Assembly (NCBI GenBank): GCA_035652635.1
Contig: DASRDL010000143.1
Coordinates: forward strand, 899 to 64,898
Length of the DNA stretch: 64,000 nucleotides
Direction of reading: 5' to 3'
Source: Hyphomicrobiaceae bacterium
Lineage (GTDB): Bacteria > Pseudomonadota > Alphaproteobacteria > Rhizobiales > Hyphomicrobiaceae
In this document: positions 15,246 through 62,737 of the stretch, one piece after another
Position numbering within the stretch: position 1 is the stretch's first letter
Layout of the letters: the number at the start of each line of letters is the position of its first letter
Notes under the pieces: generated by a model
What the model was told of the DNA's origin: nothing
Database searches by the model: none
The model's input: the letters and a program-made list of their open reading frames with translations, nothing else
Translations under genes and position numbers: made by a program

Positions 15246-15512
15246 GATCGTTGAGCCGCCCAATGATACTTTGTGTGGGGCCGCGCCCCTGGGCGCCTGA
15301 CACTGCAGCAGGAATCGTCTGCGGCCGGGCCGTGCAACAGCTTCCTTGGCCTCGGCGAAGGGGCCAGGGAGGCGCGGCTTCACAAAATTGCGACTTGCCC
15401 CTTCACGCTCCACACTGATGAATTCCCGCGCTGGTTTTGACCTAGGACAATGCCGCCCGAGCGTGGCGCTCGCACAAGTGGGCCATTGTCCGGCAGATTA
15501 AGGAATTGAGCC

Positions 15513-24026: not shown

Positions 24027-24473
24027 CTAGCGGCACACCAGCACGGGGACGGGGCTGAGCGTCACCACCTTGGCGGCTTGGCTGCCGAGGAAGAGCTTGG
24101 ACAGGCCCCGTCGCCCGTGGGAAGCCATGACGATCAGGTCGCAGCCTTGCGACTTCGCGGCCTCGAGGATGCCTTCGGCCGGGTAGCGATCCTTCACGTA
24201 AAGCGTCAAGCAAGGCTGGTCCTGCTTCTTGGCAGCCTCGCTGACCGACCACAGCACGCGATTGGCGTAAGCCGCCATGCGCTCCTCGTAGTCGGCCACC
24301 GGATTGGGAATGCGCTGCTCGGCCATGGCTGCCATGGAAAGGGCATCCCACGGCTCCGTCACCACCACGGCCGTCGCCTTGGCGCCGAGCCGCTTGGCCA
24401 GCTCCAAACCCTGCGCGACGGCCTTCTGCGCCAGCTCGGAGCCGTCGGTGGCGATCAGGATGTGCTTGTACAT
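24027..24473 (-). CDS. universal stress protein (single UspA domain)
   Basis: MYKHILIATDGSELA..., MASHGRRGLSKLFLGSQAAKVV. GGAGGAGG RBS upstream. Confidence 0.9.
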   Translation of the reverse strand: MYKHILIATDGSELAQKAVAQGLELAKRLGAKATAVVVTEPWDALSMAAMAEQRIPNPVADYEERMAAYANRVLWSVSEAAKKQDQPCLTLYVKDRYPAEGILEAAKSQGCDLIVMASHGRRGLSKLFLGSQAAKVVTLSPVPVLVCR

Positions 24474-24533: not shown

Positions 24534-25259
24534 CTAGAAGTCCTCCTCGCCACCAGCGAGCGCCTCGAGCGCCTCGAGATCGGTGATCTGCACGTGGTTG
24601 CTCTGCGGCAGCTCGATGAGGCCCATCACCCTGAGCTTGGTGAACGTGCGGCTCACCGTCTCGATGGTCAGGCCCAGGAAGTCGGCGATGTCGGCGCGCG
24701 TCATCGGCAGGTCGAACGCGCACGGATCCTTCGCCGTGCGCTCGTTGCGGCGCGAGAACGCGAGCAGGAAGGCCACCACGCGCTCGGTGGCGCTGCGCTG
24801 GCCGGTGGTGAGCAGAAGGTCACGCGTGGTCGCAAGCTCGCGCGCCACCGCCTCGTAGAGCTTGAAGCCGAGGCGGGCGTCCTGGCGCGCCATCTGGTTC
24901 AGGGCCGCCAGCGGCAGGCAGCGCAGGCGCGTCGGCTTGATGGCCTGGGCGTTCATGACGTGCTCGCCCTCGGCGCCGAGGCCGATGAGGTCGCCGGGAT
25001 AGGCGAAGCCCACCACCTGGCGCCGGCCGTCGCTCAGCACCTTGTAGAGCGCCACCGCGCCCGTCTCCACCTGGAAGATGTGGGTGGTGGGGTCGCCCTC
25101 GGCGAACACGAACTCCTTGGCCTCCACGCGGCGCAGCGATGCCTGCGCGAGGCGCGCCTCCAGATCCTGCGAGGACGGCGCCGAGCCCACGACGGGCTGA
25201 AGGGCGAGGCGGGGCTGGCTGGCGGTGCTGAGCGCGGGCATTGGCTTCTCCTCGGGCAT
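24534..25259 (-). CDS. CRP/FNR-family transcriptional regulator, FixK-like (no N-terminal Cys cluster)
   Basis: cNMP-binding fold plus HTH ADIADFLGLTIETVSRTFTKL with the E-x2-SR recognition motif. Start MPEEKP chosen within ORF 24534-25352. Confidence 0.85.
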   Translation of the reverse strand: MPEEKPMPALSTASQPRLALQPVVGSAPSSQDLEARLAQASLRRVEAKEFVFAEGDPTTHIFQVETGAVALYKVLSDGRRQVVGFAYPGDLIGLGAEGEHVMNAQAIKPTRLRCLPLAALNQMARQDARLGFKLYEAVARELATTRDLLLTTGQRSATERVVAFLLAFSRRNERTAKDPCAFDLPMTRADIADFLGLTIETVSRTFTKLRVMGLIELPQSNHVQITDLEALEALAGGEEDF

Positions 25260-25400
25260 CTGCGCGTGCAAATCGGATGCGCCAAAGGAACCATCGGCCT
25301 GTAGCCGGCATTCAGCGTGCCTGTAACGAAGTGTAATAGATTGTCCGGGCATCCGCGGATGTGTCCGGGGGGCGCGGCGAGCCGGCGGCGCGAGCCGAGG

Positions 25401-42162: not shown

Positions 42163-42704
42163 GCGTCGCGTTCGCCGTAGGTGGCGTGGTCGGCTAAGGC
42201 CTTTTCGAATTCCGCATAGCTCGTGGGGGCCGCGTAATCGCGCATGTCCCGATGGAATGACGAGAACGGCCAGTCCTCGGGATTGGCGGCCAGCCCATGC
42301 TTGATCGGATTGAACCAGCAGTATTCGACATGATGGCGGTAGTCCCGCTCGTTGCGGATGAGGTGCTCCCAGTAGCGTCGCTGCCAGATGCCGCGTTCGC
42401 CTCGCGCCCTGCGTGTCGCGGTGAGCCATTCTCCCTTGGGAACGGATTTCGAGAACAAGATCTTGATGAGGCGCCACCGCTTGGAGAAATCATGGTCGTC
42501 ATCCGGCAGCGTCCAGATTGCATGGAGGTGGTCAGGAAGCACAACCATGGCGTCGATGTGGAAGGGATGGCGTTCGCTCGCTGTTCGAACCGCAGCTCTC
42601 AAGGCATCGATGCGTTCGGTCAGCAGGCGGCTTCGCCGATCGAACAGGTTCACAGTGAAGAACCAGCACCCGCCAGGAACAAACGCGCGACGATAGTTCG
42701 GCAT
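42159..42704 (-). CDS. REP-associated tyrosine transposase (RAYT; IS200/IS605-like Y1 HUH transposase)
   Basis: MPNYRRAFVPGGCWFFTVNL N-terminus, HUH motif VVLPDHLHAIW, catalytic Tyr region HVEYCWFNPIKHGL. Third codon positions visibly more A/T than in neighbours. Stop codon inside REP D. Confidence 0.9.
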   Translation of the reverse strand: MPNYRRAFVPGGCWFFTVNLFDRRSRLLTERIDALRAAVRTASERHPFHIDAMVVLPDHLHAIWTLPDDDHDFSKRWRLIKILFSKSVPKGEWLTATRRARGERGIWQRRYWEHLIRNERDYRHHVEYCWFNPIKHGLAANPEDWPFSSFHRDMRDYAAPTSYAEFEKALADHATYGERDA

Positions 42705-43886: not shown

Positions 43887-45230
43887 TCACTCGGCGGCGA
43901 AGCTGAAGGCGAGGCTCTCGAACTCCTGCGGACGCCGTCCGCGCCGTGGCATCGTCGCCATGTGCTCCAGCTGCGCGATGGTGAGCGCGGTGTCCGCGCA
44001 CGGATCGTGCGCGCGCATGAACTTCGCCATGCGCGGGGCGATCTCGGTGCGGAAGCGCGAGCCGTTGAAGACGCCGTAATGGCCGACCTTGGGGCACTCG
44101 AAGTGGGCCTTGCGCTCGGGCGCGATGTTGACGCACAGATCGAGCGCGGCGCGGCATTGGCCGGTGCCGGTGATGTCGTCCTTCTCGCCCTCGACCGTCA
44201 TCAGCGCCGGGCGCCGGATGGCTGCGAGGTCCACAGGCCGGCCGCGCGACGTCATCAGCCCGCGCGGCATCAGGTGCTGCACGAACACGGTATCGACGGT
44301 TTGCAGGTAGAACTCCGCCGTGAGGTCCATTACCGCCAGATATTCGTCATAGAACTCGCGGTGCTTCTCGGCCGAGTCGCCGTCGCCGCGCACCAGGTGC
44401 AGGAACATGTCTTTGTGCGCCTGCATGTGCCGGTCGAGGTTCATGGTCATGAAGCCCGACAGCTGCAGGAAGCCCGGATAGACCTGCCGGCCGCGCCCCG
44501 GGCAGGGCCACGGCACGTTGGTGATGACGTTGCGGCGGAACCAGTCGGTGCCGCGCTTCTCGGCCAGCGTGTTGACCACGGTGCGATTGATGCGGGTGTC
44601 GACCGGGCCGCCGGCAAGGATCAGCGTCAGGGGCACGGCCGGGTCGCCCTCAGCCTCCATGAGCGCGGTGGCCGCCAGCACCGGCACGGAGGGCTGGCAG
44701 ACGGCGAACACGTGCACGTCGCCGCCGAAGAAGCGGAACATGGCGGCCATGGTGTCGATGTAGTCGTCGAGGTCGAAGCGGCCGTCCGAGAGCGGCACGT
44801 TGCGCGCATCCTGCCAGTCGGTGATGTAGACCTCGTGCTCGGGCAGGAACGTCTCGACGGTGCCGCGCAGAAGCGTGGCGAAGTGGCCGGAGACGGGCGC
44901 CACCAAGAGAAGGCGCGGATCCTGCGCGGCGCGGGCGGGCGCGATGTCGCGCTTGAAGTGGACGAGGCGGCAGAACGGCGTCTGCCACACCACCTCCTCG
45001 GTCACGGCGACGGAGCGTCCGCCGACGCGCGTGCTGGAGATGCCGAATTCGGGCTTGGAATAGCGGCGGGTGGCGCGCTCGAAGACCTCGCAGGCGGCTA
45101 CCGCGCTGCGGCCCACGGGGGTGTGGGTGAGCGGATTGAGCGGGTTGAAGAACAGCCGGCAGGAATCGGCTGCCGCCCGGGCGGGCCTGAAGGCAGCCCG
45201 GCCGAACTCATACCACTGGTAGAGCAGCAC
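43887..45230 (-). CDS. phaZ: intracellular polyhydroxyalkanoate (PHB) depolymerase
   Basis: N-terminus MLLYQWYEFGRAAFRPAR and full-length (447 aa) resemblance to intracellular PhaZ proteins of alphaproteobacteria. Confidence 0.85.
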   Translation of the reverse strand: MLLYQWYEFGRAAFRPARAAADSCRLFFNPLNPLTHTPVGRSAVAACEVFERATRRYSKPEFGISSTRVGGRSVAVTEEVVWQTPFCRLVHFKRDIAPARAAQDPRLLLVAPVSGHFATLLRGTVETFLPEHEVYITDWQDARNVPLSDGRFDLDDYIDTMAAMFRFFGGDVHVFAVCQPSVPVLAATALMEAEGDPAVPLTLILAGGPVDTRINRTVVNTLAEKRGTDWFRRNVITNVPWPCPGRGRQVYPGFLQLSGFMTMNLDRHMQAHKDMFLHLVRGDGDSAEKHREFYDEYLAVMDLTAEFYLQTVDTVFVQHLMPRGLMTSRGRPVDLAAIRRPALMTVEGEKDDITGTGQCRAALDLCVNIAPERKAHFECPKVGHYGVFNGSRFRTEIAPRMAKFMRAHDPCADTALTIAQLEHMATMPRRGRRPQEFESLAFSFAAE

Positions 45231-45417: not shown

Positions 45418-46062
45418 CTAGGGGCTCCTCAGCATACCTGCCAAGCGCTCCGCCATGACATCGGCGCTCGTGGCATGCGTGAAGTGCCCGCGGTATTTGC
45501 CGTCCGGCCCCATGACGTAGATGATCGAGGAGTGATCCATGGTGTAGCCCGCAGTCGACTTAGGGTCCGGCACCTTCTTGACGTAGACGCGGTAGGCCCT
45601 GGCGGCGTCCTCGATCTCCTTCGGCGAGCCGGTGAGGCCGACGAGGCGCGGATGAAAGCTCTTCACGTACATGGCGAGTTGGGCGGGCGTGTCGCGCTCG
45701 GGGTCGATGGTGATGAGCACCGGCGTGATGCGCTCGGCCTCAGGCCCCAGCTTATCGAGCGCCGCCGCCATCACCTGCAGTGCCGTGGGGCACACGTCGG
45801 GGCAGAAGGTGAAGCCGAAATAGACGAGCATGAACTTGCCGCGGAAATCCTGGTCGGTGACGCGGCGGCCGGTCTGGTCGGTGAGCGTGAAGGGGCCCCC
45901 CACCAAGGCCTGCCCCACGGAATGCATCGCCAGGGGCGACAGCAGCCGCTCGCGCGCGGCCGGAAAGACGGCGAGCGCCGCGACGCCGCCGAGGGCGAAG
46001 CCGGCGAGGATGTAGAGCGCCAGCCGCACGCCGGACAACGATATGGCAACCGGGATCTTCAT
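45418..46062 (-). CDS. senC: SCO1/SenC/PrrC copper chaperone (thioredoxin fold)
   Basis: Starts MKIPVAISLSG with a membrane anchor. CPDVCP copper motif (FGFTFCPDVCP). DHSSIIYVMGPDG. ATGA overlap with the upstream permease gene. Confidence 0.88.
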   Translation of the reverse strand: MKIPVAISLSGVRLALYILAGFALGGVAALAVFPAARERLLSPLAMHSVGQALVGGPFTLTDQTGRRVTDQDFRGKFMLVYFGFTFCPDVCPTALQVMAAALDKLGPEAERITPVLITIDPERDTPAQLAMYVKSFHPRLVGLTGSPKEIEDAARAYRVYVKKVPDPKSTAGYTMDHSSIIYVMGPDGKYRGHFTHATSADVMAERLAGMLRSP

Positions 46063-47853: not shown

Positions 47854-49263
47854 ATGGCCATCCTTCAGGCCGAACGCCACAGGACCGAGCCGAGCCAGAG
47901 CCGGCTGCGCCTGCAGACCGCCGTGCGGCTGCGCTGGTTCGGGGTGATCGGCCAGCTGGTGACGGTCTGCTTCGTCTACCTCATCCTCGACTACCCGCTC
48001 CCGTTCGGGATCTGCCTCGCCTTCATCGCCCTGTCGGCGTGGCTCAACGTCTTCCTGCGCATCATCTACCCTGCCCGCACGCGGCTGAGCTCGGTATTCG
48101 CCACCTGCCTGCTCGCCTACGACATCCTGCAGCTCGCCGCCCTCCTCTACCTGACGGGCGGCATCGAGAACCCGTTCACCTTCCTGCTCGTGGCGCCGGT
48201 GACGGTGTCCGCCGCCACCCTGCCGCCGCGCAACACGATCGCGCTCGGGCTCGTCGGCGCGGCGGCCACGGTGCTGCTCTTGATCTATCACCTGCCGCTG
48301 CCGTGGCAGCGCTATGCGCCGTTCGAGCTGCCGATGCTCTACAAGCTCGGCCTCCTGGCCTCCGTGCTGTCGGGCATGATCTTCCTGGCCCTCTACGTGT
48401 GGCGCCTCGCCAAGGAGGGCCGGCAGATGGCGGATGCGCTGGCCGCCACCGAGATGGTGCTGGCGCGGGAGCAGCAGCTGCACGCGCTCGACGGCCTGGC
48501 GGCGGCGGCGGCGCACGAGCTGGGCACGCCGCTCTCCACCATCGCCGTGGTCGCCAAGGAGCTGGCGAGAGACGTGCCGAAAGGGAGCCAGCTCGCCGAG
48601 GACGTGACGCTGCTGCAGACCCAGGCCATGCGCTGCCGGGAGATCCTGCGCAAGCTGACGCGAGCCCCCACGGAGCCGGACCCACTGCACGCGCGCCTGA
48701 GCATCACCCAGCTGCTGGACGAAGCGGCCGCGCCCTACCGGGGCTTCAGCGCCGAGCTCATCCTCACCGCGGCCGCCGAGCCGGGGGCGGAGGGGGCGGC
48801 CCTGCACGAGCCCGTGGGCGAGCGTCGCCCTGGCGTGCTGCACGGGCTCGGCAACCTCATCGAGAACGCGGTGGACTTCGCCGACGCCCGCGTCGAGATC
48901 AGGGCGACGTGGTCGGCGCGCGAGGTCGTCATCGAGATCGCCGACGACGGTCCCGGCATCCCCCCCGACGTCATGGACGCGCTGGGAGAGCCTTACATAA
49001 CGACGCGTCCCGCGCGGCCCCGCGGTCCGTCAAAGGATGGCGGACCTTCGGGCCTCGGCCTCGGCTTCTTCATAGCCAAGACCCTGCTGGAGCGCTCCGG
49101 CGCCACGGTGACGCTCGACAACCGGGACCGGCCGAAGCACGGCGCCGTCGTCACGGTGAGCTGGCCGCGGGAGGTGTTCGAGACGAAGCGGGCTGCCGCC
49201 TCGGGCTTCACGGCAAGGCCGGCTGAGCCTCAGCACATGGATTTGGACCGCAGCATTCATTAA
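47854..49263 (+). CDS. regB: redox-responsive sensor histidine kinase RegB/PrrB/ActS
   Basis: Multi-pass membrane N-terminus with quinone-site motif GGIENPF. H-box AAAAHELGTPLS. Redox Cys in MRCREIL. HATPase GLGLGFFIAK. Confidence 0.9.
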   Translation: MAILQAERHRTEPSQSRLRLQTAVRLRWFGVIGQLVTVCFVYLILDYPLPFGICLAFIALSAWLNVFLRIIYPARTRLSSVFATCLLAYDILQLAALLYLTGGIENPFTFLLVAPVTVSAATLPPRNTIALGLVGAAATVLLLIYHLPLPWQRYAPFELPMLYKLGLLASVLSGMIFLALYVWRLAKEGRQMADALAATEMVLAREQQLHALDGLAAAAAHELGTPLSTIAVVAKELARDVPKGSQLAEDVTLLQTQAMRCREILRKLTRAPTEPDPLHARLSITQLLDEAAAPYRGFSAELILTAAAEPGAEGAALHEPVGERRPGVLHGLGNLIENAVDFADARVEIRATWSAREVVIEIADDGPGIPPDVMDALGEPYITTRPARPRGPSKDGGPSGLGLGFFIAKTLLERSGATVTLDNRDRPKHGAVVTVSWPREVFETKRAAASGFTARPAEPQHMDLDRSIH

Positions 49264-49335
49264 GAAGTCTGCCGGGCGCAGGCTTGGGGCCCATCGGCGG
49301 GCCGGATATACTGCGGTGGAGCTGGAGATACGGAC

Positions 49336-49899
49336 GTGACGGAAGACTTTGCATTCAGGCCGGACGAGCTGCCGGAGGACCGTTCGCTCATCCTGGTGGA
49401 CGATGATCGGGCCTTCGTGCTGCGGCTGGCACGCGCCATGGAGACGCGCGGTTTCGAGGTTCGCACCGCCCACTCGGTGGCGGAGGGCATGGAGCTGATA
49501 CGCCAGAAGGCGCCGGCGTTCGCCATCGTCGACATGCGCCTGGAGGACGGCAACGGCCTCGACGTGCTGGCGGAGCTTTCCAAGCTTCGCCCCGGCGCGC
49601 GCAGCATCGTGCTCACCGGCTACGGCAACATCGCCACGGCGGTGACGGCGGTGAAGCTCGGTGCCGTCGACTACCTGGCCAAGCCCGCCGACGCCGACGA
49701 GGTGACGGACGCGCTGCTGGCCCCGCCCAACGAGAAGGCACCCCCGCCGGAGAACCCCATGTCGGCCGACCGGGTGCGGTGGGAGCACATCCAGCGCGTC
49801 TACGAGCTGTGCAACCGCAATGTCTCGGAGACGGCCCGGCGCCTCAACATGCACCGGCGCACGCTGCAGCGCATCCTGGCCAAGCGCGCCCCGAAGTAG
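49336..49899 (+). CDS. regA: response regulator RegA/PrrA/ActR
   Basis: Receiver LILVDDD...VDMRLEDGNGLD and the strongly conserved HTH NVSETARRLNMHRRTLQRILAK. GTG start. Confidence 0.92.
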   Translation: MTEDFAFRPDELPEDRSLILVDDDRAFVLRLARAMETRGFEVRTAHSVAEGMELIRQKAPAFAIVDMRLEDGNGLDVLAELSKLRPGARSIVLTGYGNIATAVTAVKLGAVDYLAKPADADEVTDALLAPPNEKAPPPENPMSADRVRWEHIQRVYELCNRNVSETARRLNMHRRTLQRILAKRAPK

Positions 49900-50130
49900 G
49901 GTCGCGATCCCGCGCACCGTTTACTGCCATTGATCCTGCGCAAAGCGGGCCTCCCGGCACCGGGCAACGCTGCCGGCGATGGACGGAGGCGTGCCATGCC
50001 CGCCGCATGAGCGACGGCTGCGGGGAGCATTGCTCGTCTCTGTCCGTCATGCCCGCCGCGCCGTGCCGAACGGCCTCGCACGCCGCAACCGCGAGCTGGC
50101 GGGATCGAACGAGACGGGAGGAAGGACAAC

Positions 50131-54465: not shown

Positions 54466-54690
54466 TCAGACCTTCTCGATGCTGAGCTGGGCGCCGTTCA
54501 GCTCCTCCAGCACGTCGTCGTTCAGTGTCTCCATCAGCGCGCCGATGCTGGTGGTCTTCTGCAGCCGGCGGTCCTGCATCTGCGCCCACACGTCGGCGAA
54601 GGCGCGACCGAAGCTTTCCGCATCCGTGATCACGTGGATGCCTTCGTAAAGGCTGGCGCCCTTTCTGCTGATGCTAAGCTTGATTTTCAT
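54466..54690 (-). CDS. hypothetical small protein (74 aa)
   Basis: ATG 54690 preceded by GGAGGTG. Sequence MKIKLSISRKGASLYEGIHVITDAESF... has non-repetitive, charged, helical-looking composition. No family recognised. Confidence 0.55.
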   Translation of the reverse strand: MKIKLSISRKGASLYEGIHVITDAESFGRAFADVWAQMQDRRLQKTTSIGALMETLNDDVLEELNGAQLSIEKV

Positions 54691-54793
54691 GGCCACCTCC
54701 AAGGCTGCCTGACACATTAGCTTGCGTGCGGCCCTTCGCCAGTCGTTGGAGCGCCGGCCCGTCGGCAGAGAAGCCGATGGCAGGGCGTCCGCC

Positions 54794-54807
54794 TTGATGC
54801 GCATCAA
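54794..54807. promoter_or_regulatory. perfect FNR/FixK-type box TTGAT-N4-ATCAA
   Basis: TTGATGCGCATCAA. 57 bp upstream of the pncB ATG and 104 bp upstream of the divergent 74-aa ORF. Confidence 0.6.
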
Positions 54808-54863
54808 CGTGGCCGGAGGGACCGCAATCCAACCTGGGCCAATCCAGCGCCAGTGGTGATCAC

Positions 54864-56222
54864 ATGGATGTCGCTGCAAGCCCGCTGCTGACCGACCTCT
54901 ATCAGCTCAACATGATCCAGGCCTACCTGGAGCATGGGGAGACGCGGCCGGCGGTGTTCGAATTCTTCGTGCGCAAGCTTCCCTCCCGGCGCGGGTTCCT
55001 GGTCGCGGCCGGCCTCGAGCAGGCGCTCGACTTCCTCGAAGAGCTGCGCTTCCCGCCGGAGGAGCTCGCATGGCTCGAGAGGAGCGGACGCTTCGGCGAG
55101 GACGTGCTCGCCTATCTTGCCGGGCTGCGCTTCACCGGCGATGTGCACGCCATGCCCGAGGGCACGGTGTTCTTCGCCAACGAGCCGATCCTGCGCGTGA
55201 CGGCGCCGCTGCCGCAGGCGCAGCTCGTGGAGACGCGCCTCATCAACGTGGTGCACTTCCAGTCACTGATCGCGGCCAAGGCCGCGCGCATGGTGCTGGC
55301 GGCGCCCGGCAAATTGCTGGTCGATTTCGGCCTGCGCCGCGCGCATGGCGCGGACGCCGGCCTGATGGCCGCGCGGGCGAGCTACATCGCGGGGTTCGCC
55401 GGCACCGCCACCATGCTGGCCGGCAAGCTGTTCGGCATTCCGATCTACGGCACGATGGCGCATTCCTTCGTGCAGGCCTGGGACGACGAGGCCGAGGCGT
55501 TCGCGGCGTTCGCCCGCTCCCGTCCGGAGAACCTGATCCTCCTGATCGACACCTATGACACCGAGGCGGCGGCCCACAAGGTCGTCGCGCTGGCTCCGCG
55601 CCTCCAAGCGGCCGGCATCAAGGTGCGCGGCGTGCGCCTCGACAGCGGCGATCTCATCGCCCTGTCCAAGAGCGTGCGGCGCATCCTGGATGAGGGCGGG
55701 CTCGGCGACGTCACCATCTTCGCGAGCGGCGGCATCGACGAGGACGAGCTGGTCGGGATGGCGGCAGAACACGCCCCCATCGACGGCTTCGGCATCGGCA
55801 CGAGCCTCACTACCTCCTCGGACGTGCCCGCGCTCGACTGCGCCTACAAGCTGCAGGAGTACGCCGGGCTGCCGCGCCGCAAGCGCTCGACGGGCAAGGC
55901 GACGTGGCCTGGCCGCAAGCAGGTGTGGCGCAGCTACGGCCCGGACGGCCGCATGTCCGGCGATACCCTCTCCGTGGAGGACGACCGCCAGCCCGGCGAG
56001 CCGCTGATCGAGCCCGTCATGCGCAATGGGCGGCGCCTCGGGACCCGGCCGACGCTGGCCGAGATCCGTGAGCGCACCGCTCACGCTCTCGCACGGCTGC
56101 CCGAGCCTCTGCGCCGGCTGGAGCCGGGCGCCCCCTATCCGGTACAAGTGACGGAGAGACTGGTGCAATTGGCGGCCGAGGTGGACGAGCGCCTGGCGCG
56201 GCAGGAAAGGGCCCGACCATGA
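54864..56222 (+). CDS. pncB: nicotinate phosphoribosyltransferase
   Basis: N-terminal LLTDLYQLNMIQAY. GTMAHSFVQ. 452 aa NAPRTase pattern. Confidence 0.88.
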   Translation: MDVAASPLLTDLYQLNMIQAYLEHGETRPAVFEFFVRKLPSRRGFLVAAGLEQALDFLEELRFPPEELAWLERSGRFGEDVLAYLAGLRFTGDVHAMPEGTVFFANEPILRVTAPLPQAQLVETRLINVVHFQSLIAAKAARMVLAAPGKLLVDFGLRRAHGADAGLMAARASYIAGFAGTATMLAGKLFGIPIYGTMAHSFVQAWDDEAEAFAAFARSRPENLILLIDTYDTEAAAHKVVALAPRLQAAGIKVRGVRLDSGDLIALSKSVRRILDEGGLGDVTIFASGGIDEDELVGMAAEHAPIDGFGIGTSLTTSSDVPALDCAYKLQEYAGLPRRKRSTGKATWPGRKQVWRSYGPDGRMSGDTLSVEDDRQPGEPLIEPVMRNGRRLGTRPTLAEIRERTAHALARLPEPLRRLEPGAPYPVQVTERLVQLAAEVDERLARQERARP

Positions 56223-56851
56223 GACATGCCATCGCCGACACCGACGTCCTGCTGGTCGTCGACGTGCAGAACGATTTCTGCCCGGGAGGCAGGCTGGCGG
56301 TGCCGCGCGGCGACGAGGTGGTGGGTCTCGTCAACCGGCTCGGCAGCCTCTTCCAGAACGTCGTGCTCACACAGGACTGGCATCCGCCGGGACACCGTTC
56401 GTTCGCCTCCACGCACCCGGGCAAGCAGCCCTACGAGACGGTCGCGTTCCCCTACGGCCCGCAGGTGCTGTGGCCGGACCACTGCGTGCAGGGCTCGCCG
56501 GGCGCGCAATTCCATCCCGGGCTCGACATCCCGCACGCCGAGCTGGTGCTGCGCAAGGGCTACCGCCGCGACATCGATTCCTATTCCACCTTCTACGAGA
56601 ACGACCACACGACGCCCACCGGTCTCGCCGGCTACCTGCGCGAGCGCGGGCTCACGCGGGTGGTCCTTGCAGGGTTGGCGTTCGACTTCTGCGTGCGCTA
56701 CTCGGCGGAGGACGCGCACCGCTGCGGCTTCGGCGTGACGGTGGTGGAGGACGCCTGCCGCGGCATCGATGTCGCCGGCTCGATGGATGCGGCGCGCCAG
56801 GCGCTCGCCCGCCTGAGCATTCCCTGCCTCGCCGCCGAGGCGGTCGGCTGA
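56219..56851 (+). CDS. pncA: nicotinamidase/pyrazinamidase (isochorismatase family)
   Basis: LLVVDVQNDFCPGG, metal and catalytic region, GLAFDFCV catalytic Cys. ATGA overlap with pncB. Confidence 0.9.
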   Translation: MRHAIADTDVLLVVDVQNDFCPGGRLAVPRGDEVVGLVNRLGSLFQNVVLTQDWHPPGHRSFASTHPGKQPYETVAFPYGPQVLWPDHCVQGSPGAQFHPGLDIPHAELVLRKGYRRDIDSYSTFYENDHTTPTGLAGYLRERGLTRVVLAGLAFDFCVRYSAEDAHRCGFGVTVVEDACRGIDVAGSMDAARQALARLSIPCLAAEAVG

Positions 56852-56875
56852 CCCGGCACGGAGCGGAGGCGGAAC

Positions 56876-57943
56876 GTGCCAGGTGATCCCCCGTCGGCCG
56901 CGCCAGACGAGCCGACGCTTGCCGACAAGGTGGCGTTCCTCAGCCGCCCCGACGCTTATCCCTATCCTGTCGAGGAGGTCGTGCGCCGGGAGACGCACAT
57001 GTCGTGGGTGTTTCTTGCCGGCAGCAAGGTCTACAAGCTGAAGAAGCCGGTGCGGTTTCCTTACCTCGACTTCTCCACGCTGGAGCGGCGGGAGGCGGCG
57101 TGCAGGGCGGAGTTCAGCCTCAACTGCCGGCTCGCGCCCGACGTCTACATCGGCGTTGCGCCCCTGGTGGCCACCCCGCGCGGTCTTGCGCTCGGCGGTG
57201 CGGGCCGCACCGTCGACTGGCTGGTGGTTATGCACCGCCTCGACGAGCGCTGGGTGCTCGAGGAGGTCCTGCGCGAGGGCCGGCTCGAGACCGGGCAGCT
57301 CGACCGGCTGGTCGCCACCCTCGTGGGCTTCTATCGGCACGCGCGGCCGGCCTACGTCTCGCCGGGCTTGCACCTGGCCGAATGGCGGAGCGACCTCGCC
57401 CTCAACCGCCGCATCCTGCTCGAGCCGCGGTTCGGCCTGCCGGCAGGGCTCGTCAGAAGGATCGACCGCGTTCTGCACCGTTTCCTGGCGCAGCGCGCCG
57501 GCCTGCTCGTCTCCCGCGTGCGCCGCCGTCGCATCGTCGACGGGCACGGCGACCTGCGCCCGGAGCACGTCTGGCTCGATCACCGCGTGCGCATCATCGA
57601 CTGCCTGGAGTTCAACACACGCCTGCGCACCGTCGACCCGCTGGACGAGGTCGCCTTCCTGACGCTGGAGTGCGAGCGGCTGGGCGGCGCGTGGGCCGGC
57701 CGCTACATCAAGCGAGGGGTCGAGCAGGGACTCCACGAAGACGCGCCGGAGGAGCTGTTCCTGTTCTATCGCTGCTACCGGGCGACGCTGCGGGCCCGCC
57801 TCGCCATCGCCCACCTCATCGAGCCGAAGCCCCGCACGCCGGAGAAATGGCCGCGGCTCGCACGCACCTACCTTGCCATCGCGGCACGCGACGCCAGGAA
57901 GCTCGAGGCCTGCCTCAGAACACGCGCTCCACCCCCGTCCTGA
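56876..57943 (+). CDS. aminoglycoside-phosphotransferase-fold (kinase-like) protein of unknown substrate
   Basis: GTG start. VYKLKKPV (Lys), catalytic-loop-like DGHGDLRPEHVW, IIDCLEF (metal Asp). The last codons and the stop lie in repeat family 2 copy 3. Confidence 0.7.
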   Translation: MPGDPPSAAPDEPTLADKVAFLSRPDAYPYPVEEVVRRETHMSWVFLAGSKVYKLKKPVRFPYLDFSTLERREAACRAEFSLNCRLAPDVYIGVAPLVATPRGLALGGAGRTVDWLVVMHRLDERWVLEEVLREGRLETGQLDRLVATLVGFYRHARPAYVSPGLHLAEWRSDLALNRRILLEPRFGLPAGLVRRIDRVLHRFLAQRAGLLVSRVRRRRIVDGHGDLRPEHVWLDHRVRIIDCLEFNTRLRTVDPLDEVAFLTLECERLGGAWAGRYIKRGVEQGLHEDAPEELFLFYRCYRATLRARLAIAHLIEPKPRTPEKWPRLARTYLAIAARDARKLEACLRTRAPPPS

Positions 57944-58032
57944 GCTTGTCGAAGGACGGACCACGCATGCCGGCCGTGCTTCGACAGGCTCAGCACGGGG
58001 TTGGAGCGTGTGACGGGGTTGGAGCGCGTGAC
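57919..58032. repeat. palindromic repeat family 2, copy 3, with duplicated terminal module
   Basis: AACACGCGCTCCACCCCCGTCCTGAGCTTGTCGAAGGACGG...GTGCTTCGACAGGCTCAGCACGGGGTTGGAGCGTGTGACGGGGTTGGAGCGCGTGAC. Confidence 0.9.
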
Positions 58033-58076
58033 ATGACGCCGAGGGCTGGGCGAGTCCGACCTAGCGCGCGGTGGTA

Positions 58077-59108
58077 TCAGAACACGACGAGGTCGGTGAG
58101 CGGGCAAGCGTCGTAGAGACGTGCGATCGCCTCGGCGAGGAGCGGAGCCGATGGGAGCAGCACGAGCTTGTCGCGGGCCGGCCCTTTCCCCAGGCGGAAG
58201 GGCGGCACGGCATCCGTGACGACGAGGCTGTCGATGGCCGGATCAGCCAGAACCTCGGCGGCGCCCTCCATGAACAGGCCGTGCGTCACCAGCGCCAAGA
58301 CCCGGCGTGCGCCCGCCGCACGCGCGCCCTTCGCGGCACGCAGGAGGGTGCCGCCGGTGCTGATCAGGTCGTCGATGACGAGGGCCGTGCAGCCTGCGAC
58401 ATCGCCCACGAACAGGTCGCCCGAGACGACGCCGGCGCTGCGATGCTTGTCGGCGAAGGCCTTGCCGACGGGACGGCCGCAGGCGGCCTCCAGCGTCTCG
58501 CGGAAAAGCTCCGCCCGCTTGGCGCCACCCGTGTCCGGCGACACGACGCAGAGCTTCTCGTCCCCGAGCTTGCGCGCATAGTCGACGAGCAGCGGAGTGC
58601 CCGTCAGCGCCACCGTGCGGCAACGGAAGGCATTCTCGAAGGCGACCGGATTGTGCACCTCCAGGGTGACGATCACGTCGGTGCCGACGGCTTCGAACAT
58701 GCCGGCGACGTAACGCGTGGTCACGGGGTCGTTGGGCTTGGTGCGGCGGTCCTTGCGCGCGTAGCACAGGTAGGGCACGACGGCCGTGACGCGGGCAGCG
58801 CCGGCGTCCTTGAGCGCGCCGATGAAGAACAGCAGGCGGCAGAGTTTGTCGTTGGCGCTCATGGCGGGCCCGCCGTGCAGGCTCTGGACGACGTAGACGT
58901 CCTGGCCGAGCACCGCATCGAGGGGGCGCGCCTTGTGCTCGCCGTCCTCGAAGTCGCGCTCCTCGTGGGAAGCGAGAGGCTGGCCGAGCGCGGTTGCTAT
59001 CGCCTTGCCGAGCTCCGCCGTTGCCCCGAGAGCGAACAATCGCAGCCGATCGCGCGGGGCTCGCCGCACAGGCTCACTCGGGCTCCACAGGGACGGCGAC
59101 TGAGGCAT
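58077..59108 (-). CDS. prs: ribose-phosphate pyrophosphokinase (PRPP synthase), divergent paralogue
   Basis: VVPYLCYARKDRR, VVSPDTGGAKRA and PRPP loop ALVIDDLISTGGTL align to the Prs pattern. The N-terminal extension and many substitutions suggest a second copy. Confidence 0.8.
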   Translation of the reverse strand: MPQSPSLWSPSEPVRRAPRDRLRLFALGATAELGKAIATALGQPLASHEERDFEDGEHKARPLDAVLGQDVYVVQSLHGGPAMSANDKLCRLLFFIGALKDAGAARVTAVVPYLCYARKDRRTKPNDPVTTRYVAGMFEAVGTDVIVTLEVHNPVAFENAFRCRTVALTGTPLLVDYARKLGDEKLCVVSPDTGGAKRAELFRETLEAACGRPVGKAFADKHRSAGVVSGDLFVGDVAGCTALVIDDLISTGGTLLRAAKGARAAGARRVLALVTHGLFMEGAAEVLADPAIDSLVVTDAVPPFRLGKGPARDKLVLLPSAPLLAEAIARLYDACPLTDLVVF

Positions 59109-59144
59109 ATCACTCTCTTCTCTCGATCGCGGCTCCAGCCCGCC

Positions 59145-60767
59145 TCACATCGCCAGCTCCGGCTCCGCCTGAGCTTCCTTCTTGCGCTCGGGCAGCTCGG
59201 TCATCGTCGCCTCCGTCAGCAGCAGGACGCCCGCCACCGAGACCGCGTTCTCGAGCGCGACGCGCACGACCTTGGTCGGGTCGATGATGCCGGCCTCGAC
59301 GAGGTCCACGTACTTGTTGCAGGCCGCATCGAAGCCGAAATTCCCCTGTCCTTCCACCATCTTGGCGACGACCACGCCGCCATCGACAGCCGAGTTGTCG
59401 GCGATCTGGCGCGCCGGGGCGCCGAGCGCGCGCTTGAGGATCTGAATGCCGGTCTTCTCGTCGCCCTCGCTATGGGCCTCCTCATCGCTCACGGCCTCGA
59501 TGCAGCGCAGCAGGGCCAATCCGCCGCCCGGCACGATCCCCTCGGCGACGGCCGCCTTGGTAGCGCTGATGGCGTCGTCGAGCGCCTCCTTCTTCGCCTT
59601 CATCTCGGACTCGGAGGGCGCGCCGACGCGGATCACGGCCACCCCGCCCGCCAGCTTCGCCAGCCGCTCGCGCAGCTTCTCCTTGTCGTAGTCGCTCGTC
59701 GACTTGTCGATCTCGCGGCGGATCTGCTGCACGCGGTCGTCGATGGCCTTGCGGCTGCCCGCGCCGCCGATGATGGTCGTGTTGTCCTTGTCGACGACGA
59801 CGCGCTTGGCGCGCCCGAGCTGGTCGAACGCGACGCTCTCGAGCTTGAGGCCAAGCTCCTCCGAGATCACCTGGCCGCCGGTGAGCACGGCGATGTCCTG
59901 CAGCATGGCCTTGCGGCGGTCGCCGAAGCCCGGTGCCTTGGCCGCGCAGCTCTTCAGCGCACCCCTCAGCTGGTTGACGATCAGCGTGGCGAGCGCCTCG
60001 CCCTCGATGTCCTCGGCAATCACCAGCAGCGGACGCGCCGCCTTCGCCACCTGCTCGAGCAGCGGGATCAGGTCCTTGAGGGCGCTGATCTTCCTGTCGC
60101 AGATCAGGATGAGCGCATCCTCGAGCACGGCCTCCATCTTCTCGGTGTTGGTGATGAAGTAGGGCGAGATGAAGCCGCGGTCGAACTGCATGCCTTCGAC
60201 GACGTCGAGCGCGGTCTCGGTGGTTTTCGATTCTTCGACGGTGATGACGCCCTCGTTGCCGACCTTCTCCATCGCGCCGGCGACCAGCTCGCCGATGACC
60301 GGATCGTTGTGAGCGGAGATGGTGGCGACCTGCGCCTTCTCCTTGCGCTCCCTGACCGGCCGCGACAGCGCCTTCAACCGGTCCACCGCCGCCTTGGCGC
60401 CCCGCTCGAGGCCGCGCTTCAGGTCGATGGCGCTGGCGCCGGCGACGACGTTGCGCACCCCGTCCGCGAAGATGGCATGAGCCAGCATCACCGAGGTGCT
60501 GGTGCCGTCGCCCACGGCCTCGCCCGTCTTCTCGGCGGCCTGGCGCAGCATCTGCGCCCCCAGGTTCTCCTCCGCGTCCTGCAGATCGAGCTCCTTGGCG
60601 ATGGTGACGCCGTCGTTGCACACGAGCGGCGCTCCCCACTTCCTCTGGATCAGCACGGACTTGGACTTGGGGCCAAGCGTCACGCGTACGGCATCGGCCA
60701 GCTGCGTGGCACCGTGCAACAGCTTCTCGCGGGCCACCGAACGGAACAGGACCTGCTTGTGCGGCAT
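59145..60767 (-). CDS. groEL: chaperonin GroEL paralogue (divergent, no adjacent groES)
   Basis: Starts [17 protein letters not shown] within ORF 59145-61184. [45 protein letters not shown]. Ends EPELAM without a GGM tail. Confidence 0.9.
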
Positions 60768-60870
60768 GAAATCGACCCTTCGCGCTGCGCCTCGACAGGC
60801 ACGCCCGGTCGAGGAGCCCGTCGCATGCGTTGCTCTGGCGAGAGAACAAGGCAGGACGGCATCGCCCACC

Positions 60871-60884
60871 TTGACACCGGTCAA
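60871..60884. promoter_or_regulatory. FNR/FixK-type box TTGAC-N4-GTCAA
   Basis: TTGACACCGGTCAA in the 228-bp divergent region between groEL (ATG 60767) and the 87-aa ORF (ATG 60996). Confidence 0.5.
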
Positions 60885-60995
60885 TGCCGGGGACGCCCTT
60901 GCGGCCGCCAATTCCGCCGAGATGTAGTGGTCCGAGCAATGCCCGGGGCGTTGCGACCTGCCCAGGCGGTCGAAGGTCAAAGAAGGAGAGAGAAG

Positions 60996-61259
60996 ATGGC
61001 CACACCCAAAAGCGACTCGAAAGCTCGGCCGCTCGCCTCGTCGATCGACGTGCGGCACGTGATCGGCCCGGTGACCGATGAGACGGTGGCGGCCATCCTG
61101 AAGTGCGGTGCGTCCGCGGAGGATCTGGAGCTCGTCGCCTGCTACCTGCGCGGCGAGGGCAACCGCGTGGACCGGGAAGGCCATCCCATTGCGGGCAGGG
61201 TGGCGCAGCTCTACGACATCGTGAGCGCCGACGAGCTCTACATGAACGAGGAGAGGTGA
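60996..61259 (+). CDS. hypothetical small protein (87 aa)
   Basis: ATG preceded by AAGGAGAG. Sequence [55 protein letters not shown]... No family recognised. Confidence 0.55.
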
Positions 61260-61280
61260 GGGCTGCCGCGCGGCCCCGTC

Positions 61281-61313
61281 ATTCCCGCGAGCGCGAAGCG
61301 CGTCAGCGGGAAT
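61281..61313. terminator. hairpin between convergent genes (ATTCCCGC...GCGGGAAT)
   Basis: 8-bp outer stem with inner GCGC-GAA-GCGC. Lies between the 87-aa ORF stop and the tandem-USP stop. No T-run. Confidence 0.35.
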
Positions 61314-61361
61314 CCAGCCGGAAACTCGACGTTCGCTTGGCGGGCATGACGTCGGGGGAAG

Positions 61362-62213
61362 CTATGCCCTCGCCACCAGCACGTCGCAGGGGGCCTCCAC
61401 CAGGAACTCCCGGGCGAGGCTGCCGATCATGGCAATCGCCAGGCCGCTTCGGGCATGGGTCCCCATGGCCACCAGGTCCGGCTGGTAGGATACGATGGCA
61501 TCGCGGAGCACGAAGAACGGGTTGCCCGCCGTCATCTCGACCCGTGGCGGCGAGGCCGGCATCGCGAGCTCGACGAGGTTGTCCTGCGCCTGCCGCTCGA
61601 TGCGCTTGCGGAGCAATTCGTTCTCTTTCACCATGGCCTTCTCGGCCGAGTCCCGGGTTCCGAAGCCGATCGGCGGCACCTGCCAGGCATGGACGATGAG
61701 GAATTCCGCGCCCGGTGCCACGGCATACGCGGCGTCCAGCGCGCGGGTGGCGCCCTTGGAGAAATCGACCGCGACGAGCACGCGGCGGTAGGCATCCCCG
61801 CCGGCACGTTTCACGACCAGCACGGGCCGGTCGCTGTGGCGGACGACACGCTCGGTCGTGGTGCCGGCGAAGAATTCCTTGAGGCCCTGCTTGCCAGGCT
61901 CGCCGACCACGATGAGATCGGCGCCGCGCTCGCGCGCATGCTCGATGATGACGGCAAAGGGCTCGCCGCCTTCCACGCTGAACCTTGCGCCCGCGCGATC
62001 CTCCTCCGGCTGCCGCGCCAGCCAGTCGCGCAGGTATTCTTCGGCCAGCGCCTGCCGGCGCTCCCGCACTTGCGCCACGAGGCCGTGCTCCACGACGTGC
62101 AGAAGGTCGAGCGTCGCGCCCCGCTCGCGGCGGAGGCGGGCGGCACGCTTGAAGGCCCGCTCCGAGCGCTCGCTCAAGTCCGTCGCCGCAAGGATGTGCT
62201 TGATGCCTGCCAT
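61362..62213 (-). CDS. universal stress protein with two tandem UspA domains
   Basis: Starts MAGIKHILAATDLSERS. A second domain begins RRVLVAVDFSKGA. C-terminal GSLAREFLVEAPCDVLV. Confidence 0.88.
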   Translation of the reverse strand: MAGIKHILAATDLSERSERAFKRAARLRRERGATLDLLHVVEHGLVAQVRERRQALAEEYLRDWLARQPEEDRAGARFSVEGGEPFAVIIEHARERGADLIVVGEPGKQGLKEFFAGTTTERVVRHSDRPVLVVKRAGGDAYRRVLVAVDFSKGATRALDAAYAVAPGAEFLIVHAWQVPPIGFGTRDSAEKAMVKENELLRKRIERQAQDNLVELAMPASPPRVEMTAGNPFFVLRDAIVSYQPDLVAMGTHARSGLAIAMIGSLAREFLVEAPCDVLVARA

Positions 62214-62262
62214 GCCTTCCTCTCTTGGCCTTCCTCTCTTGCGCGAGGCGCGCCTGCCGGCG

Positions 62263-62276
62263 TTGATCGAGGTCAA
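62263..62276. promoter_or_regulatory. FNR/FixK-type box TTGAT-N4-GTCAA
   Basis: TTGATCGAGGTCAA, 50 bp upstream of the tandem-USP ATG (62213). Confidence 0.5.
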
Positions 62277-62320
62277 CACGCGTGCCGGCCGGTCGCCGGT
62301 GCGCGCTGCCCCGCAGAAGA

Positions 62321-62737
62321 TCAGACGGCGGCGCGGTCTTCCGTCGAAAGACGAGCGGGGAGACAGCACAGCGGCAGCACACGCGCGGCGGTGCGCTGCT
62401 GTGCAGCTGAAAGTACGGCGAAGAGATCGGCAGCGGCAGCGCGCATCGAGTCCAGCGCCGCGAGCCGGGCCTTCGGCGTGCCGAAGGCCAGGTCCAGGGC
62501 ATCGAGCGACGCCTCGCCCGCAACGGGCAGGGAGCGCATGCGGCAGGCATTGCTCTCCAGCGTTGCCGCGAAGCCTTCCCATGCCTGCGCCTGCCGGGGC
62601 GTGATCGCCAGCGCCTTCTCCATGTCCGCCAGGAAGTCTGCGGGGGCGCGCGGCGGCGTCCTGTCACCCTTCCGGCGCCGCTGGAGGGCGCCGATGCCGC
62701 CGGGCGCGCGACCGGTGTGGTGCTGGGCTGTGGCCAT
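62321..62737 (-). CDS. hypothetical helical protein (138 aa), weak LTXXQ/Spy-like flavour, no signal peptide
   Basis: ATG 62737 preceded by GGAGGAGG. Contains ITPRQAQAWEGF... and LSAAQQRTAARVL. Confidence 0.5.
   Translation of the reverse strand: MATAQHHTGRAPGGIGALQRRRKGDRTPPRAPADFLADMEKALAITPRQAQAWEGFAATLESNACRMRSLPVAGEASLDALDLAFGTPKARLAALDSMRAAAADLFAVLSAAQQRTAARVLPLCCLPARLSTEDRAAV

Follow-up and report, generated by a model that had tools for sequence, protein, structure and literature searches.

Three FNR/FixK-type boxes point to a probable low-oxygen island built on a kinase-like gene and a PRPP synthetase paralogue in a Hyphomicrobiaceae contig

What do three perfect FNR/FixK-type palindromes control when they lie among stress-protein paralogues and small proteins of no recognised family? 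The question is raised by a 64-kb piece (the window) of a 65.5-kb Hyphomicrobiaceae metagenome contig (ENA ERZ27279688, k141_777454), in which an initial annotation had proposed that three such boxes organise an 8-kb block as a co-regulated hypoxia and quiescence module. The perfect operator, TTGA-N6-TCAA, was found exactly three times in the window, at the reported positions 54794, 60871 and 62263, against 0.12 occurrences expected from 100 dinucleotide shuffles (0 of 100 reached three) and 0.16 under a first-order Markov model; these figures agree with the earlier estimate of well under one chance occurrence per 64 kb at roughly 70% guanine-plus-cytosine content, which was measured as 68.9%. 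All three are intergenic and fall inside 7.5 kb. Box 1 (TTGATGCGCATCAA, 54794..54807), a perfect FNR/FixK anaerobox, lies in the divergent spacer between a gene for a 74-amino-acid (aa) protein, p74, and pncB; box 2 (TTGACACCGGTCAA, 60871..60884) lies in the divergent spacer between groEL and the gene for an 87-aa protein, p87; and box 3 (TTGATCGAGGTCAA, 62263..62276) lies upstream of the start of a tandem universal stress protein (USP) gene. We consider it probable that these boxes are class II sites of a FixK-like activator encoded in the same window (24534-25259), and that they drive a low-oxygen maintenance programme of five transcription units.

Gene identities were assigned by Pfam and NCBIfam profile searches, which bore out the earlier calls of pncB, prs, groEL and a tandem USP, and five transcription units were predicted from spacing and orientation. 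The first, read from box 1, would comprise pncB (nicotinate phosphoribosyltransferase; 54864..56222, + strand; NCBIfam NF006696, 653 bits against a cut-off of 503; Pfam NAPRTase_N/C), then pncA (nicotinamidase/pyrazinamidase; 56219..56851, + strand; NF008623, 198 bits against 174), whose start is overlapped by the pncB stop (ATGA), and third a gene for a 355-aa kinase-like protein (56876..57943, + strand); p74 (54466..54690, − strand), a conserved protein of unknown function, is divergent from the same box. On the other side, box 2 would serve groEL (59145..60767, − strand, with its ATG at 60767 and not at 60770; TIGR02348, 766 bits against 582) and, as second gene after a 36-bp gap, a prs paralogue (ribose-phosphate diphosphokinase, the synthetase of 5-phosphoribosyl 1-pyrophosphate (PRPP); 58077..59108, − strand; TIGR01251, 227 bits against 113; Pfam Pribosyltran_N and Pribosyl_synth), which is convergent with the kinase-like gene and passes the subfamily cut-off while falling under every equivalog cut-off. 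The gene for p87 (60996..61259, + strand, ATG at 60996), also of unknown function, diverges from box 2, and the tandem USP gene (61362..62213, − strand; Pfam Usp in two stretches, E=1.9e-52) is read from box 3. The other side of box 3 faces the 3' end of an LTXXQ-family gene (62321..62737); this gene lies within the 8-kb block, has no box upstream, and nothing ties it to the regulon. The centres of the boxes lie 63.5 bp from the pncB start codon and 110.5 bp from that of p74 (box 1), 110.5 bp from groEL and 118.5 bp from p87 (box 2), and 56.5 bp from the tandem USP gene (box 3); these distances of 56-119 bp match the 50-120 bp given earlier. The groEL gene is an orphan, as previously described, and a non-canonical copy: no GroES match was found anywhere in the window, and the protein reaches the GroEL equivalog score without the GGM-repeat tail at its C terminus. 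The 355-aa protein, p74 and p87, set down earlier as three proteins of unknown function, gave no Pfam or NCBIfam match, with Pfam searched to E<=5. The block was found to hold no sigma-70 consensus promoter, in keeping with promoters that depend on an activator. Between the convergent stops of the kinase-like gene and prs, the 133-bp spacer holds an 18-nt tandem direct repeat (ACGGGGTTGGAGCGTGTG / ACGGGGTTGGAGCGCGTG; 57995-58030), preceded by an 8-bp inverted repeat (TGTCGAAG...CTTCGACA; ~57943-57987).

The window was compared with 80 loci from species-representative genomes, which were fetched through an alignment of homologues of the 355-aa protein and span Hyphomicrobiales, other Alphaproteobacteria, Burkholderiales and Gammaproteobacteria; the locus counts are not fully independent, as two loci (L006 and L007) derive from the same metagenome-assembled genome and a few Bradyrhizobium loci are close kin. 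In their 1.34 Mb we found 242 perfect boxes against 10.8 expected, an enrichment of ~22-fold, and the preferences at the inner positions (T>C at position 5, A>G at position 10) matched the FNR/FixK2 consensus. An even spread of the motif, against which the initial annotation had cautioned, was not observed, the motif being absent from the remainder of the window and enriched across the related loci. The 355-aa gene is convergent with prs in 62 of the 80 loci; in 39 of 77 loci a perfect box is found no more than 250 bp upstream of the 355-aa gene or of a p74 gene that immediately precedes it, and in 21 of 61 one is found upstream of prs. In the window and in two further loci (L003 and L004), pncB(-pncA) separates the 355-aa gene from its box and groEL separates prs from its own, indicating that the conserved architecture consists of a box and the kinase-like gene followed by prs and its box on the opposite strand. 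By this comparison, pncB-pncA, the orphan groEL, p74 and p87 appear as recurrent accessories of a kinase-prs core. The conserved unit is not the 8-kb block described earlier as co-regulated but the smaller convergent pair, each member read from a box. The boxes are also kept upstream of the same genes in orthologous intergenic regions, where the initial annotation had suggested looking: box 1 forms a conserved island in the otherwise diverged p74-pncB spacer in the alignment of the window with L003 and L004, and box 2 is conserved as CACCTTGACRCYGGTCAATG in the groEL-p87 spacer of both loci, the rest of which has diverged. Orthologues of groEL stand behind boxes in L003, L004, L014 and L016, and in Bosea and Rhizobium leguminosarum.

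When the open reading frame (ORF) just downstream of each box in the 80 loci was taken and the proteins were clustered, the commonest families were a 222-aa phosphoribosyltransferase (PRTase; 18 loci), prs (17 loci) and the 355-aa gene (17 loci), followed by a protein combining a hibernation-promoting factor (HPF) with a cold-shock domain (7 loci), Hsp20 in two clusters (6 and 3 loci), and p74 and p87 (6 loci each). Further box-adjacent families included DUF2267, USP, pncB, PGA_cap, glutamine-dependent NAD synthetase, archease, pncA, DUF3775, host-attachment/baeRF12, a PCMT-erythromycin-esterase fusion, PolX and FtsH. Judged by this recurrence, the box islands appear to combine PRPP and NAD metabolism with the protection of proteins and ribosomes. 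Of these families, the PRTase, the HPF/cold-shock fusion, the glutamine-dependent NAD synthetase, archease, PGA_cap, the PCMT-erythromycin-esterase fusion, PolX and FtsH are missing from the window. Examples of box-adjacent genes outside the window lie at 9899 (− strand) in L053, 14371 (− strand) in L018, 11384 (+ strand) in L035 and 12208 (+ strand) in L065.

The same arrangement was found in cultured bacteria. A tblastn search against plasmids returned the 355-aa family in 109 records, in which close relatives are annotated as 'hypothetical protein' and distant ones (32-36% identity) as 'bifunctional aminoglycoside phosphotransferase/ATP-binding protein' or 'AAA family ATPase'. Plasmid pB32-1 of Bosea sp. 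F3-2 carries host-attachment genes, an orphan GroEL (77% identity), a PRTase, the 355-aa gene convergent with prs, a USP and a tandem USP, with boxes upstream of GroEL, PRTase/kinase, the tandem USP and one host-attachment gene. On plasmid pRL22b4 of R. leguminosarum bv. trifolii 22B, nine boxes were counted over 19 kb, upstream of GroEL (74% identical to the window GroEL), glk/ppsA, tandem USP, the 355-aa gene, USP-prs, BON, Hsp20 and mgtA. The box precedes the tandem USP genes by 60.5 bp in Bosea and by 59.5 bp in R. leguminosarum. Furthermore, in Methylocella tundrae, where boxes are likewise present, NAD synthase follows prs.

To position the boxes relative to transcription, 33 promoters of the 355-aa gene were lined up on the box, revealing a −10-like element, T-A-(A/G)-(T/A)-T-T, 29-34 nt from the box centre; this spacing would place the box at about −41, the class II position of FNR and CRP. 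At box 2 of L003 and L004, −10-like hexamers occur 29-34 nt from the centre on both sides, which fits one site serving two divergent promoters. When one mismatch was allowed, 13 sites were counted in the window against 5.3 expected. Among those added to the perfect boxes, the one at 42301 was dropped because it lies inside a called ORF. Two others are intergenic: TTGATCCTGCGCAA at 49930-49943, 194 bp before a Glu/Leu/Phe/Val dehydrogenase gene (50131) with 2-oxoacid dehydrogenase E1/E2 genes behind it, apparently in the same operon; and TTGACCTAGGACAA at 15437-15450, ~70 bp upstream of a GntR/UTRA regulator gene. Both may be weak sites or chance matches.

The candidate cognate activator is a CRP/FNR-family regulator (24534..25259, − strand; HTH_Crp_2, Crp and cNMP_binding domains). 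As the initial annotation had stated, its recognition helix contains ETVSR (...TIETVSRTF..., of the E--SR type) and it lacks an N-terminal Cys cluster for an iron-sulphur centre, having two Cys only, neither of them N-terminal; it also stands beside a usp gene, a single-domain USP (24027..24473, − strand; Pfam Usp E=5e-36) located 60 bp downstream. A comparable adjacency has been described in Burkholderia cenocepacia H111, where uspA lies upstream of anr2 (PMC9104464), and is implied by the neighbouring locus tags RSP0697/RSP0698 of Rhodobacter sphaeroides (PMC2908626). A second in-frame ATG at 25241, after a GAGGAG ribosome-binding site, may be the true start, in which case the annotated start at 25259 is 6 codons too long. 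Upstream of the gene lies a K-box-like direct repeat, ATTACA-CTTC-GTTACA (25322..25337, − strand), resembling the FxkR consensus GTTACA-N4-GTTACA; no other stretch of the 64 kb comes within one mismatch of that consensus, and 0 of 100 shuffles contained such a match. The repeat precedes the first ATG by 70.5 bp and the second by 88.5 bp, a spacing compatible with the K-box reported at −62 for R. leguminosarum fixK genes (PMC7888657). Among the loci, the regulator has a single close orthologue (73% identity), in L004, where it lies inside the island and has a K-box-like site ~90 bp upstream, one of 3 such sites in the 1.4 Mb of loci. Taken together, the FixK-like regulator and the K-box-like repeat, present also at the L004 orthologue, suggest a cascade of the hFixL-FxkR-FixK type.

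At the core of these islands stands the 355-aa protein. Its AlphaFold2 (AF2) model (predicted local distance difference test score, pLDDT, 89) shows a predicted bilobal, protein-kinase-like fold with a catalytic-loop-like HGDLRPEH, and the best Foldseek matches were choline/ethanolamine kinase, methylthioribose (MTR) kinase and aminoglycoside phosphotransferases (APHs), with probability 1.0, template-modelling (TM) scores of 0.4-0.55 and 11-18% identity. No PDB sequence was matched by a profile of the kinase-like family, and Pfam APH (PF01636) gave no significant profile match to the protein. Hence the earlier description as an APH-fold kinase-like protein holds for the fold, which is APH-like, and finds no counterpart among the Pfam or NCBIfam models. 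Like the APH/choline kinase/MTR kinase superfamily, the protein has the predicted fold and an invariant HGDLRPEH followed by IIDCLEF, which together with VYKLKKPV are invariant in the family alignment. Unlike that superfamily, it has His in place of the Asn of the canonical HxDxxxxN motif, its gene is partnered with prs and not with resistance or lipid genes, and it is only 11-18% identical to any solved structure. The family is large (11,517 clusters at 50% identity), and in fused relatives (P0284, P0285, P0326, P0250/P0253/P0266/P0345/P0357) the kinase-like domain is joined to Prs (P0284), DUF2267, HPPK or, in either order, AAA_33 P-loop kinases; the last are annotated 'aminoglycoside phosphotransferase family enzyme/predicted kinase' or 'bifunctional aminoglycoside phosphotransferase/ATP-binding protein'. 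HPPK is another pyrophosphokinase, and DUF2267 is also box-adjacent in related islands. The fusion to Prs and the conserved gene pairing argue for a shared process in which the kinase-like protein and Prs both take part.

Of the small proteins, p74 is a real, conserved protein: it was found in at least 128 clusters, nearly all of 74-75 aa and every one named 'hypothetical', and in other loci it often lies directly upstream of the kinase-like gene, behind the box. Its AF2 model (pLDDT 80) predicts a beta-beta-alpha-alpha-beta arrangement, for which a fold search gave no significant PDB match. The rarer p87 is represented by six clusters in a large protein database.

The regulatory elements have close counterparts in rhizobia, for which the logic of a FixK/FnrN anaerobox and an FxkR K-box has been described (PMC7888657). 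The window shares with the rhizobial regulons (hFixL-FxkR-FixK and FnrN of R. leguminosarum; FixLJ-FixK2 of Bradyrhizobium diazoefficiens) the operator TTGA-N6-TCAA, an E--SR regulator and a FixK type without the Cys cluster, and with R. leguminosarum and R. etli a K-box-like element before fixK (PMC7888657). Rhizobial FixK/FnrN targets include USP, Hsp20 and host-attachment genes (PMC6515984, PMC11784457), and the R. leguminosarum 22B plasmid carries the kinase-prs pair, the orphan groEL and USPs, each behind a box. Experimental precedent for the present interpretation comes from R. leguminosarum, in which an anaerobox-bearing small heat-shock protein gene was shown to be induced roughly 50-fold under microaerobic conditions in an FnrN-dependent manner (PMC11784457). 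In contrast to the rhizobial regulons, the window shows no fixNOQP/GHIS or nif context, and its organism is uncultured and presumably a free-living Hyphomicrobiaceae relative. Neither the main text of the Dufour 2010 reconstruction of FnrL/FixK/FnrN regulons (PMC2908626) nor the main text and supplements, as available to us, of that by Tsoy 2016 (PMC4999443) mention prs, pncB, groEL or this kinase-like gene; the FixK regulon predicted in the former lists a 'putative kinase', whose identity with the present gene is not established. The B. diazoefficiens genes bll3115-3117, comprising a prs paralogue and a thymidine-phosphorylase-like gene, are induced in microoxia, unmarked as a FixK2 target and set in another context, and were not used as support.

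A contiguous low-oxygen island of ~50 genes, the lxa locus of Burkholderia cenocepacia, carries 17 such motifs and is needed for anoxic persistence (PMC3721108). Resembling the present islands, lxa has intergenic TGA-N6-TCA motifs, multiple USPs, an alpha-crystallin, an FtsH-type protease and CRP/FNR regulators inside the island; it differs in being betaproteobacterial and in containing polyhydroxyalkanoate synthesis, acetate kinase, class II ribonucleotide reductase and ribokinase genes, whereas the block in the window is small, with 3 boxes and 8 genes. A text search of the lxa paper found neither nicotinate phosphoribosyltransferase nor PRPP synthetase, and its authors had already drawn the overlap of lxa with the DosR regulon (PMC3721108).

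The DosR regulon of Mycobacterium tuberculosis comprises pncB2 (Rv0573c), a putative PRTase (Rv0571c), a ribosome-hibernation factor (Rv0079), the CapA-like Rv0574c, hspX, RtcB, USPs and Rv2004c (PMC5309233, PMC8701281), the last reported with weak phosphotransferase activity (PMC8701281). Among these, pncB2 and the USPs match genes of the window, and the PRTase, HPF, CapA-like, Hsp20 and RtcB proteins (the last through its cofactor archease) have their counterparts in box-adjacent families of the related loci. The likeness to DosR noted in the initial annotation thus holds for the gene families, of which it takes in more than were listed there; as to a possible link with Rv2004c, the 355-aa family shows only the fused layout, the kinase-like domain joined to an AAA_33 P-loop kinase. 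DosR, in contrast, is a NarL-type response regulator of another phylum with an unrelated operator, and the resemblance is best taken as functional analogy, not membership.

From these data we propose that the boxes would bind a dimeric CRP/FNR-family activator, most likely the FixK-like protein, at class II sites centred ~41 bp upstream of the transcription starts, and would drive pncB-pncA-kinase and p74 from box 1, groEL-prs and p87 from box 2, and the tandem USP from box 3. The regulator lacks an oxygen-sensing Cys cluster; its gene is probably switched on at the level of transcription, through the K-box-like repeat, by a response regulator of the FxkR type that would answer in turn to a hybrid-FixL oxygen sensor. 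In the resulting low-oxygen maintenance programme, the Prs paralogue would make PRPP, PncA and PncB would consume it in resynthesising NAD from nicotinamide, the GroES-less GroEL and the USP would protect protein, and the small-molecule kinase would work together with Prs. The hypoxia and quiescence module of the initial annotation gains support from the boxes, their conservation, their spacing in orthologous promoters, the gene identities, the type of regulator and the K-box-like element; the dependence on oxygen, together with the regulator-box pairing, the operon structure and the physiological role, is what we infer from them.

Several observations weigh against this proposal. The regulator lies 30 kb from the block, and its best NCBIfam match, the Caulobacter-type FixK (NF050806), scored 172 bits against a cut-off of 300, so that it is better described as FixK-like than as a certified equivalog. 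No fixL, fxkR or fixNOQP was found in the window. The −10 candidates of the window itself are weak (TTCTCT, CCAACC, TTGTTC, CAAGAG), and a −10 matrix derived from all box-ORF pairs resolves direction poorly, its 'no ORF' control being contaminated by promoters that the filter missed; its sole clear call was for box 3, where the + side, the one facing the LTXXQ 3' end, reached the 3rd percentile and the USP side the median. No tandem-USP orthologue was found by tblastn in the closest loci or the cultured strains, leaving box 3 without an orthologous footprint and with its apparent support at the gene-family level only. The kinase-Prs fusion P0284 is a single sequence on 3 contigs from 3 sources, possibly of one organism. 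Finally, five loci, from Halomonas, Vreelandella and Billgrantia (L066, L069, L073, L076) and from Gluconacetobacter (L046), lack any perfect box up to 10 kb from the kinase-like gene; the convergent prs is kept in four of them (L066, L069, L073 and L046, not L076), suggesting that the regulatory link is lineage-specific and that the kinase-prs pairing is older or broader than FNR-type control.

The distance and the sub-cut-off score of the regulator, together with the fact that 65.5 kb is all that is known of the genome, also speak for a different binding protein, namely that the boxes are functional and are bound by another CRP/FNR paralogue encoded outside the window, either an FnrN-type iron-sulphur oxygen sensor or a Dnr/NnrR-type nitric oxide sensor, the FixK-like protein being irrelevant or one of several inputs. 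FixK and FnrN do occur side by side in rhizobia and share the anaerobox to which they bind (PMC7888657, PMC4999443), and in R. leguminosarum UPM791 the anaerobox-bearing small heat-shock protein gene depends on FnrN and is not driven by FixK (PMC11784457). However, the closest fixK-like orthologue lies inside the island in L004, and both fixK-like copies have the K-box-like element expected in a low-oxygen cascade. We regard this explanation as unlikely, and it would alter the binding protein, not the kind of system.

Decidedly less probable is that the boxes are CRP/FNR-family sites answering another signal, such as energy or carbon starvation or stationary phase, or that they repress instead of activating. 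This would accord with the cNMP-binding-type domain and the lack of an oxygen-sensing cluster in the regulator, with the general quiescence functions of USPs, chaperones and ribosome-hibernation genes, and with the lack of respiratory genes (cbb3 oxidase, hemN) in the window. It is opposed by the spacing of ~41 bp estimated from the −10-like elements, an activation geometry and not one of repression, by the K-box-like element, which ties the regulator to the hFixL-FxkR oxygen cascade (PMC7888657), and by the low-oxygen response of all experimentally studied TTGA-N6-TCAA regulons found in the literature (PMC11784457, PMC3721108, PMC6515984, PMC7713065). Chance palindromes with no regulatory role, for which the shortness of a motif of eight fixed bases and the weak −10 candidates of the window might speak, have next to no probability, being effectively refuted by the failure of any shuffle to reach three, the intergenic clustering, the 22-fold enrichment in related loci, the conserved orthologous spacers and the recurrence at the same families in cultured strains.

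The regulatory logic is that of a textbook FNR/FixK anaerobox island and does not change the understanding of low-oxygen regulation; this kind of island is already known, and it is the conserved core, the kinase-like gene with a PRPP synthetase, that has so far gone undescribed. A very widespread kinase-fold family is tightly paired with a PRPP-synthetase paralogue at the core of stress islands in Alpha-, Beta- and Gammaproteobacteria, in the company of NAD-salvage genes, a PRTase, an orphan GroEL and two small proteins, conserved but of unassigned function. Tentatively, and with considerable doubt, we suggest that the kinase-like protein and the Prs paralogue could form a dedicated two-enzyme system, providing non-growing, oxygen-starved cells with PRPP, or a related phosphorylated ribose, for the salvage of NAD and nucleotides, and that this module, with PRTase, pncB, HPF, Hsp20 and USP, could have been recruited independently under FNR/FixK in Proteobacteria and under DosR in mycobacteria (Rv2004c type). 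If so, a large unannotated family (>11,000 clusters at 50% identity), including a long-uncharacterised DosR-regulon protein, would acquire a biochemical role. Because the same islands occur in cultured, tractable bacteria (R. leguminosarum, Bosea), a role of the pair in surviving hypoxia is directly testable, and through it that of Rv2004c-like proteins.

With regard to the remaining features of the window, no Rfam RNA family was detected in it, and terminator-like sites were not above chance. The composition of the block is the same as that of its flanks and shows no sign of recent horizontal acquisition. Approximately 4.5 kb upstream of the block lie genes for a six-transmembrane histidine kinase (HisKA/HATPase; 47854-49899) and a 187-aa response regulator (45418-46062), with an SCO1/SenC gene nearby, a group that we take to resemble the redox-sensing RegB/RegA (PrrBA/ActSR)-SenC arrangement. 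A polyhydroxybutyrate depolymerase gene (PHB_depo_C; 43887-45230), with no box, lies upstream of the SenC and ABC-transporter genes; storage-polymer genes are typical of low-oxygen islands such as lxa.

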